NCBI GenBank assembly: GCA_963767595.1
Contig: CAVYEK010000021.1
Span: forward strand, 33,658 to 97,657
DNA: 64,000 nucleotides
Reading direction: 5' to 3'
DNA from: Terriglobia bacterium
Lineage (GTDB): Bacteria; Acidobacteriota; Terriglobia; Bryobacterales; Bryobacteraceae
A program made the position numbers and the translations under genes. Below the pieces are notes generated by a model. The model was not told where the DNA came from. It did no database searches and worked only from the letters and a program-made list of their open reading frames with translations. Shown here one piece after another: positions 21,898 through 61,358 of this stretch. Position 1 is the stretch's first letter, and each line of letters starts with the position of its first letter.

Positions 21898-23259
21898 ATG
21901 CGAATGCGGCGATTGCAACCAGTGATCTGGACCAAGGGCACGTTTCTCACCCCCCAGCACCTGCAACTCCAGGATCGCTTTCTCGAAAGTCTCCTGGAGT
22001 TCCACCTGGACAGTCTTTCATTCCGTCCCTGGGGTTTCGCCACCCTGCAAATCAGCCGGGAAGCTCTCGCGGGCGGAGTATTCGGTATCGGCAGCGCGTC
22101 CGGGCTCCTGCCGGACGGGCTGATCTTCGATATACCCGGGGCCGACAGCGCCCCGCCGCCCAGGCAACTGATTGAGTGCTTCGAGAAGGATCAAACCACC
22201 CTTGACATGTACCTGGCCGTTCCGCAATACCGCGACCGGGGTCTGAACGTGGCCTCTTCCACGCGCGACAGCGGGGCCAGGTATCGCGCGGAAATCGAAG
22301 TGTTCCGCGACGAAACCACGGGCCTTTCGGAAAAGCCGGTCCAGGTGGCGCACAAGAATCTGCGCCTGCTGGTGGAAGGCGAGAATCGCGACGGCTGCTC
22401 GACCTTGCGCGCGGCCCGGGTCCAGCGCAGCGAAACCGGCGTTTTTCAACTGGACCCGGGTTTCGTGCCACCGTTGCTGGATTTCGCCGCTAGTGACCAC
22501 TTGGTTTCGATCGCGCGCCGTCTCGTGGAGCTTCTCACCGCGCGCTCCAGCGCCATCTCCGGAATGCGGCGGCAGAAGAACCAGAGCCTGGCGGATTTCA
22601 CCGCCGCCGATATCGCCAGTTTCTGGCTGCTCTACACCGTCAACACGGCCTTCCCGGTTCTCCGCCACTTATTCGAAACCCGTCGCGGGCACCCCGAGGC
22701 GCTTTATAACGCGATGCTCTCGCTGGCCGGAGCGCTCTCTACGTTTTCCACGGAAGTCCACCCGCGCGACCTGCCGGCGTACGATCACGACAATCTGGGC
22801 GTCTGCTTCACGGACCTGGACGAGAAACTGCGCACGCTGCTCGAAACCGTTGTGCCTACCAATATCGTGTCGCTGCCGCTGAAACTGGTCCAGCCGGCGA
22901 TCTACGCCACCTCCCTCGACAACGAGAAGTACCTGGTGAATACCCGGATGTACTTGGCGGTGAGCGCTGAAACCAGCCAGGCGGAGATCGTGGGCAAGAC
23001 GCCGCCACTGGTCAAAGTGTGTTCGGCGAGCCACATCGACCACCTGGTGCGGCAGGCGCTGCCCGGTGTTCCGCTGACTTACGTTGCGGCCCCGCCCAGC
23101 GCAATTCCGGTCAAGTTGAACCACCAGTATTTCAGCCTGAGCCAGTCCGGCCCCGCGTGGGAAGCCGTGCTGCGTGCCCGCAACCTGGCCGCCTACGTCC
23201 CCGCGGACCTGCCCAACCCGCAACTCGAGCTGATCATTCTGCTGCCGCAAGCGGGGTAG
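21898..23259 (+). CDS. tssK: T6SS baseplate protein TssK (paralogue 1)
   Basis: 453 aa. 'PVIWTKGTFLTPQHLQLQDRF' is the TssK N-terminal signature, and the protein is collinear with the second copy. Start is ATG 21898 or 21904, with no SD. Confidence 0.9.
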   Translation: MRMRRLQPVIWTKGTFLTPQHLQLQDRFLESLLEFHLDSLSFRPWGFATLQISREALAGGVFGIGSASGLLPDGLIFDIPGADSAPPPRQLIECFEKDQTTLDMYLAVPQYRDRGLNVASSTRDSGARYRAEIEVFRDETTGLSEKPVQVAHKNLRLLVEGENRDGCSTLRAARVQRSETGVFQLDPGFVPPLLDFAASDHLVSIARRLVELLTARSSAISGMRRQKNQSLADFTAADIASFWLLYTVNTAFPVLRHLFETRRGHPEALYNAMLSLAGALSTFSTEVHPRDLPAYDHDNLGVCFTDLDEKLRTLLETVVPTNIVSLPLKLVQPAIYATSLDNEKYLVNTRMYLAVSAETSQAEIVGKTPPLVKVCSASHIDHLVRQALPGVPLTYVAAPPSAIPVKLNHQYFSLSQSGPAWEAVLRARNLAAYVPADLPNPQLELIILLPQAG

Positions 23260-23272
23260 GGCCTCGTTAGTG

Positions 23273-23471
23273 TAGTGGGGCGTAAGAACTGCCCATTATC
23301 CATTGCCAGCCAATCATCGCGCTCGATCCGTAGAGCGGGCTTCCAGCCTGCCATGCCGGCGTCCTCGCCGGCATTCTTCGAGGAATGCCGGTACGGATAC
23401 CGGCATGGCAGGCTGGAAGCCCGCTCTACGGCGCTCTCGATAATGCGCATCATTTGCGCTGCGGACCACTA
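23273..23471. repeat. composite palindromic element: two inverted copies of a ~90-100-nt structured unit filling the tssK1/Pro-rich-gene convergent gap
   Basis: Perfect 32-bp inverted repeat 23328-23359 / 23400-23431 (ccgtagagcgggcttccagcctgccatgccgg). Inner 9-bp hairpin at 23368-23391. The outer ends begin TAGTGG (23273 on plus; 23471 on minus, where TAG is the stop codon). A third copy lies at 38742-38833. Confidence 0.6.
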
Positions 23472-25025
23472 GCGCCGCATTAGCAGAAACACCACAAGAC
23501 CGCCTGCCAGAAACATCAGCAGCCCTACAATTGCCAACAGCAGGACGTTGGTGGAAGGCGCCTTGACCGGCGCCGGCGGGGGCATGGAGTACTGCGGCGC
23601 CGGCATGGAGTATTGCGGCGCCGGCGGCGGGGGCATGGAGTATTGCGGCGCCGGTGGCGCCGGCATGGAGTACTGCGGCGACGGCAGACCGGGAATCGCG
23701 GGTTGCGCCACGCCTGGGATCGGGGGCGCATTGGCTTGCGGCATCGCGGGCGTGCTCGCGATCTGAGGCATGTGCGGATACCCGGGCGCCGGGGGCGTGG
23801 CGGGAGCGCCGGCGCCCGGGGTCGGGGGAACCGACATCAGGAGAGTGTACTCACTGGGACCCTGCTGCACGCCGGGTGCCTGACCCGGCTGCGGCGGCGA
23901 TGGAATCGCAAACGCCTGGGTCGCGCCAGCCGGTCCGGCATGGCGTGGCGCGGGCGGCGGAGCCGACCACGATCCCGGGGCGGACGGGAACCCGGACGCC
24001 GCCGGCAAAAGCGGTCCTTCGGTTCCCGGGGGCTGGGCCTGAAAGAGCCGCGTGAATTCGCCCCCTTGTGGACGGCTCGCGGGCTCCGGCACGGGCGGCG
24101 ATGGCGACTGAAACATGCGAGTAAATTCGCCGGCCGGGGCTGGGGACGGCGCTGGAGGCGGCCAATCCCCCGTTGACGGCGAAGACGGCAGGGGAGATTG
24201 ATAAAACACCCGCGTGAACTCTCCGGGCGAACCGGAAGCCGCCGGAGGCTGCGGAGGCGGCGCCGGCTCGGCCATCGGCGCGGCCGGGGCCTGAAACAAT
24301 CGGGTGAACTCTCCCGGCGTCGATTCCGCTGGCGGAGGCGCCGGCAGCGGACTCGCCGGCGATGCGGCAGAGTGCGGCAGCGTTGCAACCTGCGCGGCCG
24401 GGGCCTGAAACAATCGGGTGAATTCTCCCGGCTGCGGTTCGGCCGGCCCCGCAACAGGCGCCGCGGCGACCGGTGGAGGAGCGGGCGGCTCGGCCGGGGA
24501 CTGAAACAGTCGCGTAAACTCTCCCGGCTCGGAATCGACCGGTGACGGCTCGCCCGGCGGCGCCATCATCGGGCCGGCGGGCATCGGCATCGGTTCCTGG
24601 AACCTGCCGGCGAATGCGGTGGGCGGTACGGCCGGCGCGGGCGCGGCTGGGGGCCCGGGAGATGGCGGCTCCGCGGGCGGCTTGAACGTAGGAACCTTCC
24701 ACACGCCCGCGCGACTCAGTTTCTGAGCCTCCATCGCCGCGTGTTCCTGGTCCTTGAGCCACTCCAACAAATGCTGAAAGGGCGGGGCAGCCGTCACAAC
24801 GTACTGCGTCCCTTCGCTATCGTTCCCGAGTTCGAGCATCCGGGCCAGCGAGATCGGCGGAAGAGCGCGCAGCCTGGCCAGAATCCTCTCGTTCTCCGGA
24901 GTCTGCCCTTGCGCCAAGAAATGGACGCTCACAGCCCGCCCGGAGCTTCTCTGCCGAGCCCGGAAGCTCTTAGGGCCTTCACCAGGCAGTGGTTCGATCA
25001 ACTCGTACTTTTGATGGACGTCCAT
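23469..25025 (-). CDS. tail-anchored proline-rich repeat protein with a degenerate kinase N-lobe-like N-terminus
   Basis: ORF 23469..25067; ATG 25025 has GGAG upstream. Six 'GEFTR(L/M/V)F' motifs and four 'PQYSMP' motifs. C-terminal TM 'VLLLAIVGLLMFLAGGLVVFLLM'. The N-terminal 'YELIEPLPGEGPKSFRARQRSSGRAVSVHFL' resembles Hanks subdomains I-II but lacks the Gly-loop and the Lys. Confidence 0.7.
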   Translation of the reverse strand: MDVHQKYELIEPLPGEGPKSFRARQRSSGRAVSVHFLAQGQTPENERILARLRALPPISLARMLELGNDSEGTQYVVTAAPPFQHLLEWLKDQEHAAMEAQKLSRAGVWKVPTFKPPAEPPSPGPPAAPAPAVPPTAFAGRFQEPMPMPAGPMMAPPGEPSPVDSEPGEFTRLFQSPAEPPAPPPVAAAPVAGPAEPQPGEFTRLFQAPAAQVATLPHSAASPASPLPAPPPAESTPGEFTRLFQAPAAPMAEPAPPPQPPAASGSPGEFTRVFYQSPLPSSPSTGDWPPPAPSPAPAGEFTRMFQSPSPPVPEPASRPQGGEFTRLFQAQPPGTEGPLLPAASGFPSAPGSWSAPPPAPRHAGPAGATQAFAIPSPPQPGQAPGVQQGPSEYTLLMSVPPTPGAGAPATPPAPGYPHMPQIASTPAMPQANAPPIPGVAQPAIPGLPSPQYSMPAPPAPQYSMPPPPAPQYSMPAPQYSMPPPAPVKAPSTNVLLLAIVGLLMFLAGGLVVFLLMRR

Positions 25026-25117
25026 GAGCGCTCCGCTTCCCTGTAACATCGTACCGCGCCGGCTCAAAGTGAGCGCTGCACCGAGCGGCTTATGCTACCC
25101 TAATCCGGAGCGGGCTT

Positions 25118-38741: not shown

Positions 38742-38833
38742 GGGCCGGGCTGGTACGAATACCGGGATGGCAGGCGAGACGCCCGCTCCATGCCGCACTC
38801 GATAATGGGCGCCATCCGCGCCGCGGACCACTA
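38742..38833 (-). repeat. solo copy of the structured 3'-end repeat unit, beginning at the TAG stop of the upstream acyltransferase gene
   Basis: About 75% identical over ~90 nt to 23381-23471, including 'ctcgataatg' and 'gcggaccactag'. The two small hairpins are preserved by compensatory changes. Confidence 0.55.
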
Positions 38834-40660
38834 GCGGCCCGTCACGGGCGCCCCCCGACCGGTGGCATGCCAGGCCGAGAAAGCGGCCGCTCCCGGCTTA
38901 CCCAGGTACCGCTCCAGCACGGCCGAAGGTAAGTTGCGCAGATCCACCAGGATCAAGGCGTCCAGGGCGTTGACGAAGCGGCGGTCCACGTTGAATCCCA
39001 GGAGCCGCCCTCCGGCTTTCAAATATTGCTTGATCAGAATGGGAACGCCCTTGCCGTCCCTCTCCACTCCCGCGACCAAGTCGGAGAGATCCTCAATGGC
39101 GGCGGGCGTCCGGCGCACCGCACCGGTGCGGCGGAACAGGCGTTCGGCGGGGCGGTACGCGCGGCGCGGGGCCACCCAGCGGGCCAGGTCGCCGGCGCCA
39201 TGCGCTTCGAGGAATTTCACCATGAGGTGCCGCGAGACCGGGTGATAGTCGTTGCTGATGCTCACCCCGCCGAACAGGGCGGCGCATTCCGGACGGCCGG
39301 CGACGTAGCGGCCAATGCCTTTCCAAAGCAGCAGCAGCGGCGCATACTGCTTTTGGTATTCCGGCCGAATGAAGGACCGGCCGAGCTCGATGGCCGGGCC
39401 GATGCGATCGAACAACTCCTTTCGAAAGCGGAACAGCGTACTGGTGTAAAGGCCGCGAATTCCATAACGCGGGAGGATGTCGGGCGTGGGGCCAAGCCGG
39501 TACGCCCCCGCAATTTCGCCGGCCTCCCCATTCCACAAGAAGAGGTGCAGATAATGCTCGTCGAACTCATCCAGGTCGATGGTTCGCCCGCTGCCCTCTC
39601 CCACCTGCCGGAAGGCGATCTCGCGCAGGCGGCCGATTTCGCGCGTCACGTGCGGGAGTTCTTCGGCGGTACCCAGGAAGGCCGCCAACTGGCCCGCCGC
39701 GCACAGCATCCGGCCGGCCGGCAGGCGGTCCACTTCCGCCGCCAACGCGCGCCGCGGAACGGTTGCGGCCACGCGCCGGAAGTTTCCAAAGGGCGCGACG
39801 CGCGGCGTCACCGGCGCGCGGCGTGTCCGGACTCCGGCCGAATCCAACAGGTAGGTTCGGCAGCGGAGGTACTCGGTGGCCTCGCGGGCGTCGGGGAACG
39901 ATTGCAGGGTGGCGTGGCTGATGGGCTGGCCAATCTTCAGGTGGACCGAACGGCCGCGTTTGTTCAGGAGTTCGCGCGGCAGGCTGGCCGTGCGCCAGCG
40001 TGGATGGAAGGCCCCCGTCACCTGGAACAGGACGCTGTTGGCGCCCTTGAAGAAGATCGGCAGTGCGGCCGCCCCCGCAATTTGCGCCAGCCGCGCCACG
40101 GTGGGATTCCACGGGGGATCGGCCAGAATCCCGTCTTTCCAGTTCAGGTGAGCCACTTCACCGGCCGGAAATGCGACCAGCGCTCCTCCGCGGCGAAGCC
40201 ACGCCAGGCACTCCCGCAGCGCGCCCGCATTGGCGGCGGCCAGGTCCGGGCGCCCGAATGGATCGATGAAGATGCACTTCTCCCACAGTTCCGGCACGGC
40301 GGCGAGCATCGAATTGGCCAGGATCCGGACGTCGGGCCGGATTCTCGGGAGAACATGCGCGAGGATGGCCCCTTCCAGCAACCCGAAGGGATGGTTGGCC
40401 ACGGCGACTACCGGACCCGACGGCGGGATTCGCGCGAGTTCCGAGGGATCGAGGTCGATGGTGATCTCAAGCTGCGCGAGCAGGGAAGCGATGGGGCCCT
40501 CGCTCACCGGGGAACAACGGGCCGCATCGATCACCGCACGCAGCCGGTGGAAGGAAAGCAACCTCTGGATCGCCGGTTCCACGGGCCCCAGGATGCTGCG
40601 CAGCGGTTCATCCAGGACTCCGGAAACGGCCGGCGGATCGAACGTGATGGGGATCGGCAT
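38831..40660 (-). CDS. bifunctional acyltransferase: N-terminal PlsC-like lysolipid acyltransferase plus C-terminal GNAT/OlsB-like N-acyltransferase (OlsF-like aminolipid synthase candidate)
   Basis: 609 aa. 'VVAVANHPFGLLEG' (HX4D/E box) and 'ALVAFPAGEV' for the PlsC-like part. 'LREIAFRQVGEGSGRTIDLDEFDEHYLHLFLW' and 'ELGRSFIRPEYQ' for the OlsB-like GNAT part. Confidence 0.65.
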   Translation of the reverse strand: MPIPITFDPPAVSGVLDEPLRSILGPVEPAIQRLLSFHRLRAVIDAARCSPVSEGPIASLLAQLEITIDLDPSELARIPPSGPVVAVANHPFGLLEGAILAHVLPRIRPDVRILANSMLAAVPELWEKCIFIDPFGRPDLAAANAGALRECLAWLRRGGALVAFPAGEVAHLNWKDGILADPPWNPTVARLAQIAGAAALPIFFKGANSVLFQVTGAFHPRWRTASLPRELLNKRGRSVHLKIGQPISHATLQSFPDAREATEYLRCRTYLLDSAGVRTRRAPVTPRVAPFGNFRRVAATVPRRALAAEVDRLPAGRMLCAAGQLAAFLGTAEELPHVTREIGRLREIAFRQVGEGSGRTIDLDEFDEHYLHLFLWNGEAGEIAGAYRLGPTPDILPRYGIRGLYTSTLFRFRKELFDRIGPAIELGRSFIRPEYQKQYAPLLLLWKGIGRYVAGRPECAALFGGVSISNDYHPVSRHLMVKFLEAHGAGDLARWVAPRRAYRPAERLFRRTGAVRRTPAAIEDLSDLVAGVERDGKGVPILIKQYLKAGGRLLGFNVDRRFVNALDALILVDLRNLPSAVLERYLGKPGAAAFSAWHATGRGAPVTGR

Positions 40661-54243: not shown

Positions 54244-54362
54244 TTCCGTGGCGCGGCCTCTCAGGCTGCCGCGGCGAGATTCGTCTCGACGCTGGGCGGC
54301 GGATTGTGGGCCAGACTCGAGACGAGTGTCGAGCCGGCAGGTTAAGAGCCTGCGCCACGGAA
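54244..54362 (+). other. ~120-nt extended imperfect hairpin occupying the TBDR/glpQ intergenic region
   Basis: Outer 11-bp pairing ttccgtggcgc (54244-54254) with gcgccacggaa (54352-54362). Inner 9-bp pairing tcgtctcga (54281-54289) with tcgagacga (54317-54325). ctgccg/cggcag pair in between. No U-tract. Confidence 0.4.
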
Positions 54363-60194: not shown

Positions 60195-61358
60195 TTAACC
60201 TGGCTTGCCCATCCTCAGCCATTGGTCCACGGTCAGCGCCAGCACCCCGAACATCAGATGCGCCATGACCTTGGCTGCGCCGCGAACCCGGAGGTGACTT
60301 GCTCCAAACTCATCCTTCAGACGCGCGTTCACCCGCTCGACCATGGTCCGCTCCTTGAAGCGCTCCTGCTGCGCCCAGGTGAGCTCCGGAGTCGGCGCGA
60401 CAGGAAACACTTTCGGCAGTTGGGAGGGCTTCTTGGTCCCCCGGCGCGGGTGCGGCGCGACGATCGGCACGTGGTTCAGCTTCCGGCTGTGGGCGTGCAG
60501 GCCGTCCGCGTCATAGGCCGAGTCCATAAGGTCGTAGAGGTAGACTACCCGCTGAGAGGTCATCGTCATCAACGGAATGGCCACCTGCGAATCGTGCACG
60601 CTGGCGCTGGTGAGCACCGCGCTGATGGGAACCTGCCCATCGGCGACGTCCAAGTGGAGTTTGTAACCGCGCCAGTAATGCTCGTGGCCCTGGCTGTTCT
60701 TCTTGGCGCCGATGTCGCATTGCCGCGGCAGATCGGCCAGCATGACCTCCAGTTTTTGATGCGGCTGGCGCTGAATGCGTTTGCCGCGTTCACTGGCTTT
60801 GGCTCTGGTGTGGAAGCCTTTGCGCGGTTTTCGTTTGGGCTTCTTGGCGGCCCGCTTCCGCTCCCTCACCGCTTCCGGGAAGCGCTCCCGCGCCGGGATG
60901 GCGGTGGAGTCCCGAGCAATGTGGCCGATGAGACGCTGGTTCTGGGTGGCCTGAACGACTGCCTCATGCAGGCGCTCGGGCAATCGGCCAGCCGCAAATT
61001 CGGCAAAGGCGCGCGAAAACTTGGATTCGTGCGGCAAGGCGCCCGGACTGCGCCAGCCGCAGAATTGGCGCAGCGCCCGGTCCACCCGCAGACGACCCAT
61101 GAGGTCGCGTGTGGTGGGCAGATTGAAGATGGCTTTGGCGATGAAAGCTGTGGCCAGAGCCGCCCGATCTTTGGCTGGCCGGCCGGTGCGGGCGCGACGC
61201 GCGCCCAACCATCCAGCCAACGGGGCCAAGGCAACCACAGAAGCCAGCAACTCCAATTGCGGGCTCAGGCCGCCGACGGCGGCCTCCAGGTGCGGAAACA
61301 GTTGCTGTTGAAGAACGTGGCCGAATTGCAACACGGCTTGGCGGGGTGTAAGCTGCAT
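60195..61358 (-). mobile_element. IS4/IS5-superfamily DDE transposase ORF (387 aa); IS ends not resolved
   Basis: 'HIARDSTAIPA', 'WRGYKLHLDV...PISAVLTSASVHDSQ', 'YLYDLMDSAYDA' and 'ERTMVERVNARLKDEFG' are DDE_Tnp_1-type blocks. AT-rich flanks at 60145-60194 and 61359-61500. Confidence 0.85.

Follow-up and report, generated by a model that had tools for sequence, protein, structure and literature searches.

What is the palindrome that fills the gap between tssK and a convergent Pro-rich gene in a genome of the Bryobacteraceae, and does it serve either gene? The window, meaning the whole stretch of DNA that was analyzed here, is 64,000 nucleotides long and corresponds to C21:33658-97657 of an Acidobacteriota metagenome-assembled genome (MAG) of 5.98 Mb in 38 contigs, called G000 below. 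We believe, with a probability of about 85%, that positions 23270-23469 of the window are a non-autonomous MITE of the IS630/Tc1-mariner family with a REP doublet as its core.

Structure of the palindrome in the tssK/Pro-rich gap

The near-palindrome is 205 bp long (23268-23472). Its arms, 23328-23379 and 23380-23431, have 52 nt each and are 88% complementary. As described in an earlier note on this DNA, complementarity is perfect over 32 bp, and it is confined to the outer part of the arms (23328-23359 and 23400-23431). Each arm can form the 7-bp hairpin of that note (GCGGGCT-TCC-AGCCTGC, one G-T pair, a G-U pair in RNA), which is followed by a second hairpin of 9 bp. The inner 9-bp hairpin (CCGGCATTC/GAATGCCGG) was found at the apex, 23368-23391, in both sequence and fold. 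The whole gap folds with -140.4 kcal/mol against a shuffle mean of -84.5 (z = -11.8), and none of 200 shuffles equaled it. A palindrome made by chance or locally, unique to this locus, can be dismissed, since besides this fold score dozens of copies exist in two species and the copy census refutes it.

The earlier note had read the gap as two inverted copies of one unit of about 95 nt. The palindrome stands, but the single unit does not, as each half joins one 50-nt REP unit to a terminal repeat arm of the IS630 type, with arm lengths of 58 nt (left) and 38 nt (right) (Table 1). Its two labels, REP/BIME-like and MITE-like, both apply: the core is a REP doublet and the outer ends are IS630 terminal inverted repeats (TIRs). 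Each half is indeed sense-oriented to the coding sequence it follows, but this is automatic because the element is palindromic.

Orthologues of tssK in Bryobacteraceae MAGs are 65-92% identical, and relatives of TssK place the genome among Bryobacteraceae/Solibacteraceae MAGs from peat. The Pro-rich protein had no Pfam match, and the 3' end of its gene is conserved among relatives. It carries about seven GEFTR(L/V/M)F(Q/Y) repeats and QYSMP repeats ahead of the C-terminal membrane anchor.

Table 1. Features at and around the palindrome, in window coordinates
Feature	Position	Strand	Basis or remark
tssK, type VI secretion baseplate protein	21898..23259	+	Pfam T6SS_VasE, E = 1.9e-138; stop TAG 23257-23259
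Left TA, one copy of the probable TA target-site duplication (target T-TA-G)	23268..23269	.	Sequence; empty sites in relatives
Putative MITE proper	23270..23469		TA flanks at 23268-9 and 23470-1
MITE left arm	23270..23327	+	IS630-type terminal inverted repeat of ~35 nt (GTGTAGTGGGGCGTAAGAACTGCCCATTATCC), then linker
REP unit	23329..23378	+	C-GTAG-A, hairpin 1 (7 bp, one G-T pair), hairpin 2 (9 bp), TTCTT
REP unit	23381..23430	-	With the plus unit, tail-to-tail doublet, GTAG outward (REPIN-like)
MITE right arm	23432..23469	+	Terminates in IS630-type repeat ...GATAATGCGCATCATTTGCGCTGCGGACCAC
Right TA of the probable target-site duplication	23470..23471	.	Sequence; empty sites
Stop codon TAG of the Pro-rich gene	23469..23471	-	Duplicated TA plus last base of the element; probable stop before insertion, TAA
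Pro-rich protein, GEFTRLFQ repeats, C-terminal membrane anchor	23469..25067	-	Longest ORF; true start may be further in
Second MITE copy, truncated (half a REP unit and right arm)	38742..38834	+	Terminal CTAG gives stop TAG of a 610-codon minus-strand ORF

An RNA element selected by the host was considered, namely a bidirectional terminator, a protective 3' hairpin or a source of a 3'-UTR sRNA for tssK and the Pro-rich gene. The position exactly between two convergent stop codons and the very stable hairpin fit such a role, and effects of MITEs and REPs on mRNA stability have been reported (PMC3733652). However, scanning 22900-23800 gave no terminator-like site. The tails read TTCTTC and TTCCTC, so the view that the structure lacks a U-tract and is not a classical intrinsic terminator held. 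An Rfam E-value scan matched miRNA-precursor models only, which are generic hairpins, with 20-60 bits against gathering thresholds of 51-196.

Copies of the element and of its REP unit

The note had proposed to look for further copies, and BLAST of the gap against G000 gave 13 near-full copies (180-206 nt, 81-96% identity) and about nine fragments. Full copies were present only in G000 and its sister species G001, where the numbers were similar. The REP core was distributed more widely: it occurred in eight of nine congeners, and weakly in just one of 15 other genera of the family. For the right REP arm, most copies show GAGAC as the loop. In the window copy (23400-23431) the loop is TGGAA, the exact complement of the left arm, hinting at conversion between arms within a single element.

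Iterated nhmmer searches of G000 with one arm detected 185 REP units at 150 loci (116 singlets, 33 doublets and one triplet). The 50-nt unit reads CGT(A/G)GAGCGGGC(T/C)TCC(A/G)GCCTGCCA(T/C)GCCGGC(A/G)TCCN(T/C)GCCGGC(A/G)TTCTT, and the 185 units start with CGT(A/G)GAGC. Singlets have sharp borders and unrelated flanks. In 29 of the 33 doublets GTAG points outward. Tight doublets, with 2-4 nt between the units, were found inside the family-A MITE shell only, and therefore the doublet was amplified by the shell. The unit at 23329-23378 folds as DNA with -18.3 kcal/mol (z = -6.1). The covariation check suggested earlier was carried out with 74 distinct units and gave strong hairpin covariation: the two-hairpin structure was 97.9% paired, six of 16 pairs were changed on both sides (111 cells), none of 500 shuffles reached the observed score, and slid controls collapsed. 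One G-T pair was kept in 66 of the 74 units and thus marks one strand as the folding strand.

Gene calls were made with a crude script based on ORFs and codon scores, which missed the Pro-rich gene, and statistics of genomic context are approximate. REP units were mostly extragenic, and most of the 37 calls "inside a gene" lay at ORF ends. With these approximate calls, the units showed no significant orientation bias relative to flanking genes (28 sense, 20 antisense), and the orientation to genes expected in the note was not borne out. The 50-nt unit has the hallmarks of a REP: GTAG or GTGG next to an imperfect palindrome, high copy number and a mostly extragenic location.

Could the whole 205-bp element then be a REPIN or BIME, that is, a REP doublet with extended flanks moved as single-stranded DNA by a RAYT? 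The GTAG or GTGG 5' of the palindrome, the number and extragenic location of the units, the outward GTAG of the doublets, and the retained wobble pair with its compensatory changes are all in line with this, and G000 encodes 11 Y1_Tnp genes. However, when a RAYT/TnpA(REP) gene was searched for, as the note advised, none of the 11 Y1_Tnp loci of G000 or of 26 Y1 loci of congeners was flanked by the REP of the MITE core. They had other hairpin repeats instead, and only two weak partial REP matches were seen, both in congeners. No transposase was encoded among the genes between inverted REP pairs. Moreover, IS630-type TIRs flanked by CTAG form the exact borders of the 205-bp unit, and the tight doublet is restricted to this shell. 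We consider a RAYT origin of the whole element quite unlikely; for the 50-nt REP singlets that occur free, the RAYT reading may still be right.

Among the Y1 loci, three copies (L001-L003; 91-95% identical) of a Y1 (IS200-like) transposase element of about 735 bp with its own inverted repeats of about 90 nt were seen at C16:64712-65053, C17:34789-35130 and C16:31119-31460 of G000, together with a truncated fourth copy at C19:302694. About 3 kb downstream of every one of these three lies a REP unit with matching orientation, which may be a coincidence. We take this element to resemble the "TIRYT" elements described for Acidobacteria.

IS630-type ends and insertion at a stop codon

A pattern search with the end motif gave hits in nine of ten genomes of the genus and near-zero hits in controls, and the hits were mostly inverted pairs 150-205 bp apart. 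In the congener G004, two pairs lay 1,171 bp apart. One of these copies has an intact ORF of 364 aa and the other is frameshifted. The protein contains the Pfam domains DDE_3 and HTH_32/HTH_29 and matches the NCBIfam model NF033545, "IS630 family transposase", with 279 bits (cut-off 100). Homologues with 84% and 70% identity are multi-copy in complete genomes of other genera and have the same ends and CTAG flanks. The ends of this IS (CTAGTG...TGCGGC...ATTAT) match the TIRs of the MITE: when the IS and the short elements were aligned, the blocks TAGTG, TGCGGC and ATTAT were common over about 35 nt. The left arm of the window copy aligns with both ends of the 1,171-bp IS and with other MITE families, in which these blocks are conserved.

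In its features, the G004 element is like two autonomous IS630/Tc1-mariner elements, IS630 of Shigella sonnei and ISY100 of Synechocystis: 1,171 bp with a single transposase that has an N-terminal HTH and DDE_3, imperfect TIRs, and CTAG flanks with TA at the junction. What sets it apart from both, as a new member, is a TIR sequence of its own (TA, then GTGTAGTGCGGC...).

No intact cognate transposase was found in the G000 assembly, only a truncated relative with 64-66% identity (C12:114513-114965), and the assembly of G001, which shares the MITE family, likewise had no intact one. MAG assemblies often lose multi-copy IS, and absence from an assembly is not proof. The window itself contains a DDE transposase at 60195-61358 on the minus strand (DDE_Tnp_1 and DUF772), for which no clear inverted repeats were found. 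It was rejected as the partner, being IS5-like and single-copy, with ends unrelated to the MITE.

The orthologous sites in relatives are empty, and the window copy is a recent insertion. The element was present in none of 80 TssK loci from related genomes, and the tssK/Pro-rich gap is without it in L012-L015, L017, L018, L020 and G007. In about ten close relatives the Pro-rich stop codon lies at the same position (CTA, TTA or TCA on the plus strand), and the gap has 8-96 nt of unrelated sequence. Removal of 23270-23471 in silico gave ...GGCCTCGTTAGCGCCGCAT, with a 7-nt gap and a TAA stop; this can be compared with the gap of G007 and L020, which is 8 nt long and forms no hairpin. Other copies behaved similarly. 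When the joined flanks of the 13 copies were used as queries, intact empty sites were found in G001 for C13:492031-492233, C7:76702-76898 and C10:59250-59438. In the reciprocal case, a family-B copy is filled in G001 and its site is empty in G000. A family-B copy of G001 (L145, C41:9266-9460) is inserted where a small ORF encodes its signal peptide, and this ORF is intact in G000 (C19:295954).

These sites also bear on the RNA element. Such a hairpin could be useful at this place, as other relatives have other palindromes in the same gap. However, the element is missing from the orthologous loci, some of which have no hairpin at all, and the same element stands in unrelated contexts with REP units unbiased in orientation. 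A host-selected RNA element is, in our opinion, very unlikely, and a dedicated terminator, 3'-UTR or sRNA role found no support in the sequence. As a side effect, the MITE may hypothetically still work as a hairpin in RNA, at the 3' end of the tssK transcript and of the convergent Pro-rich one.

The tssK/Pro-rich gap is an insertion hot spot by the stop codon, with a different insert in almost every relative (L011-L020, G005). The inserts include family-C palindromes, a B-like shell, 1.5 kb in L011 and 0.6 kb in L019.

Aligned copies start with CTAGTG(C/T)AGTGCGGCG and end with CGCCGC(A/G)GACCACTAG. All intact copies are flanked by C/TTAG...CTAG. The three empty sites read CTAG, two of them CACTAG, and in this palindromic target a 2-bp duplication looks the same as a 4-bp duplication; an element ending in CTAG and inserted beside CTAG is also compatible with it. 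The IS630 family is described as moving by cut-and-paste into TA, which is duplicated, with CTAG preferred (PMC2170065 and the Tenzen papers cited there). In G000, CTAG is depleted about 10-fold (2,014 observed against 19,740 expected from base composition). From the copies at C8:423962, C10:59250 and C8:955267, the outermost ~11 nt are missing on either side; C10:59250 nonetheless has an empty site in G001. Such copies are not explained by simple cut-and-paste. A direct repeat of 13 nt (GCGGTCCCGCTAG) borders the copy on C23. An IS200/IS605-style insertion 3' of CTAG, considered since the target CACTAG resembles the right end, was dropped once the IS630 partner was found.

The overlap with the Pro-rich stop codon follows from these ends. 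The note had placed a minus-strand stop TAG of the Pro-rich gene in the repeat, and it is there, within the terminal CACTAG. The edges of the element read TA-G...C-TA (hyphens at the junctions), and a gene that enters either edge meets TA plus G, that is TAG, no matter which of TAA and TAG had been its stop before. The Pro-rich stop codon lies in the edge of the element because G...C ends inserted in the TA of a stop codon rebuild TAG. The TA/CTAG target and the G...C ends explain the link with stop codons, and a function at 3' ends is therefore not needed. By the crude gene calls, the terminal TAG is the stop codon of an ORF of 155-610 codons in five of 14 copies; likewise, 235 of the CTAG sites of G000 share bases with a predicted stop codon, and another 906 are intergenic. 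The association with stop codons is about at the level given by target choice and purifying selection.

In sum, the ends of the element are the ~35-nt TIRs of a 1.17-kb IS630-family IS that a congeneric genome contains, and in place of a transposase gene the interior has the inverted doublet of the genus-wide 50-nt REP unit. The origin that we propose is as follows. A transposase supplied in trans would have excised the element and inserted it at a TTAG overlapping the Pro-rich TAA, within the TA of this site, and the TA would have been duplicated. With G as its first and C as its last base, the element would rebuild TAG at either edge. Such insertions would do the protein no harm, and for this reason would survive. 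The palindrome, like the hairpins in it, is a property of the mobile DNA, from TIR pairing and the REP doublet, and not a signal evolved for tssK or the Pro-rich gene. In annotation, the palindrome should be labeled as mobile DNA (IS630-family MITE with a REP core) rather than as a regulatory signal belonging to the T6SS locus, and the overlap of its edge with a stop codon should be read as a target-site effect. The TA-G...C-TA ends illustrate how insertions at stop codons can become neutral.

Known systems and interchangeable cores

MITEs derived from IS630 elements have been described before, with Correia and RUP as examples (PMC2817692). The element described here is 200 bp long and non-coding, it has 13 near-full copies, and relatives have empty sites. 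For the Acidobacteriota it represents a new MITE of the IS630 family, one whose core is a REP doublet. Like Correia/NEMIS of Neisseria and RUP of Streptococcus pneumoniae, it falls within 100-300 bp, carries TIRs matching an IS630-family IS, may duplicate a TA target, lies intergenically next to genes, folds back on itself, and occurs in dozens of copies with insertion polymorphism between close relatives. Unlike them, it belongs to a host of the Acidobacteriota (Bryobacteraceae) whose assembly holds no intact partner IS, its interior is a doublet of an independently abundant REP unit rather than what a deletion left of the IS, and the same TIR shell occurs in the genus with at least four unrelated palindromic cores.

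The core can be compared with REP/REPIN-RAYT systems (Pseudomonas fluorescens SBW25, the BIMEs of E. coli, the GTAG repeats of Stenotrophomonas). GTAG or GTGG followed by an imperfect palindrome, hundreds of copies, singlets and inverted doublets, and compensatory changes that preserve the hairpins are common to both. In contrast to these systems, the unit here has 50 nt and two hairpins, no RAYT flanked by the core REP was found in the loci searched, and the tight doublet owes its amplification to the DDE-transposon shell that carries it as cargo, rather than to spread as a free REPIN.

Within the genus, four kinds of palindromic core (A, B, C and D) were found between the same IS630 ends. 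Family B has a palindrome of the GTGGGGCAG type and occurs in G000 at C7:199246-199442, C35:98591-98779 and C22:25384-25540, and also in G001. Family C (CAAAGCGGGGACTGG...) was seen in G003, G004 and G006, and in L014 and L017 the tssK gap contains the same palindrome with no shell around it. Family D (CCGCTCCCTCACGGTCGCGGCTCTG) was seen in G005, and its arm is present at no fewer than 48 G000 loci outside any shell. At the same tssK/Pro-rich site, G005 has a B-like shell of about 90 nt without a core. This design is modular: four cores lie in the same transposon ends, and two of them come from independently abundant REP units. As selfish DNA the element is of an ordinary type, and it is this build that is unusual. 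Candidate routes for the entry of a core are insertion of a REP into the apex of a MITE, capture of filler DNA during gap repair, and deletion of a composite.

More tentatively, the ~35-nt IS630 ends might be a reusable shell that has repeatedly captured REP/REPIN palindromes of different families (cores A to D), giving REP doublets that lack a RAYT a second route through a DDE transposase, or REPINs might favor the single-stranded apex of fold-back MITEs. This would be a chimeric MITE-REPIN class. We regard it as possible, with the odds against it, and no description of such a class was found in the literature searched. If true, one selfish element would be riding on another. In any case, the modular design bears on the origin of MITEs and on the spread of REPs without RAYTs. 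For the Bryobacterales, which are poorly studied, the data also document a clade of IS630 elements together with its MITEs, and the insertion polymorphisms can be used as strain markers in peat metagenomes.

Two further repeat loci were observed. At 54244-54362, the window contains a rod-like palindrome of another REP family (GTGGCGC...CTCAGGCTGCCGCG...GTCTCGAC), and a palindrome of this type also adjoins the IS630 remnant on contig C12. A repeat hot spot at C7:199246-201458 of G000 consists of a family-B MITE and, after it, a pair of family-A MITEs with 137 nt between them.
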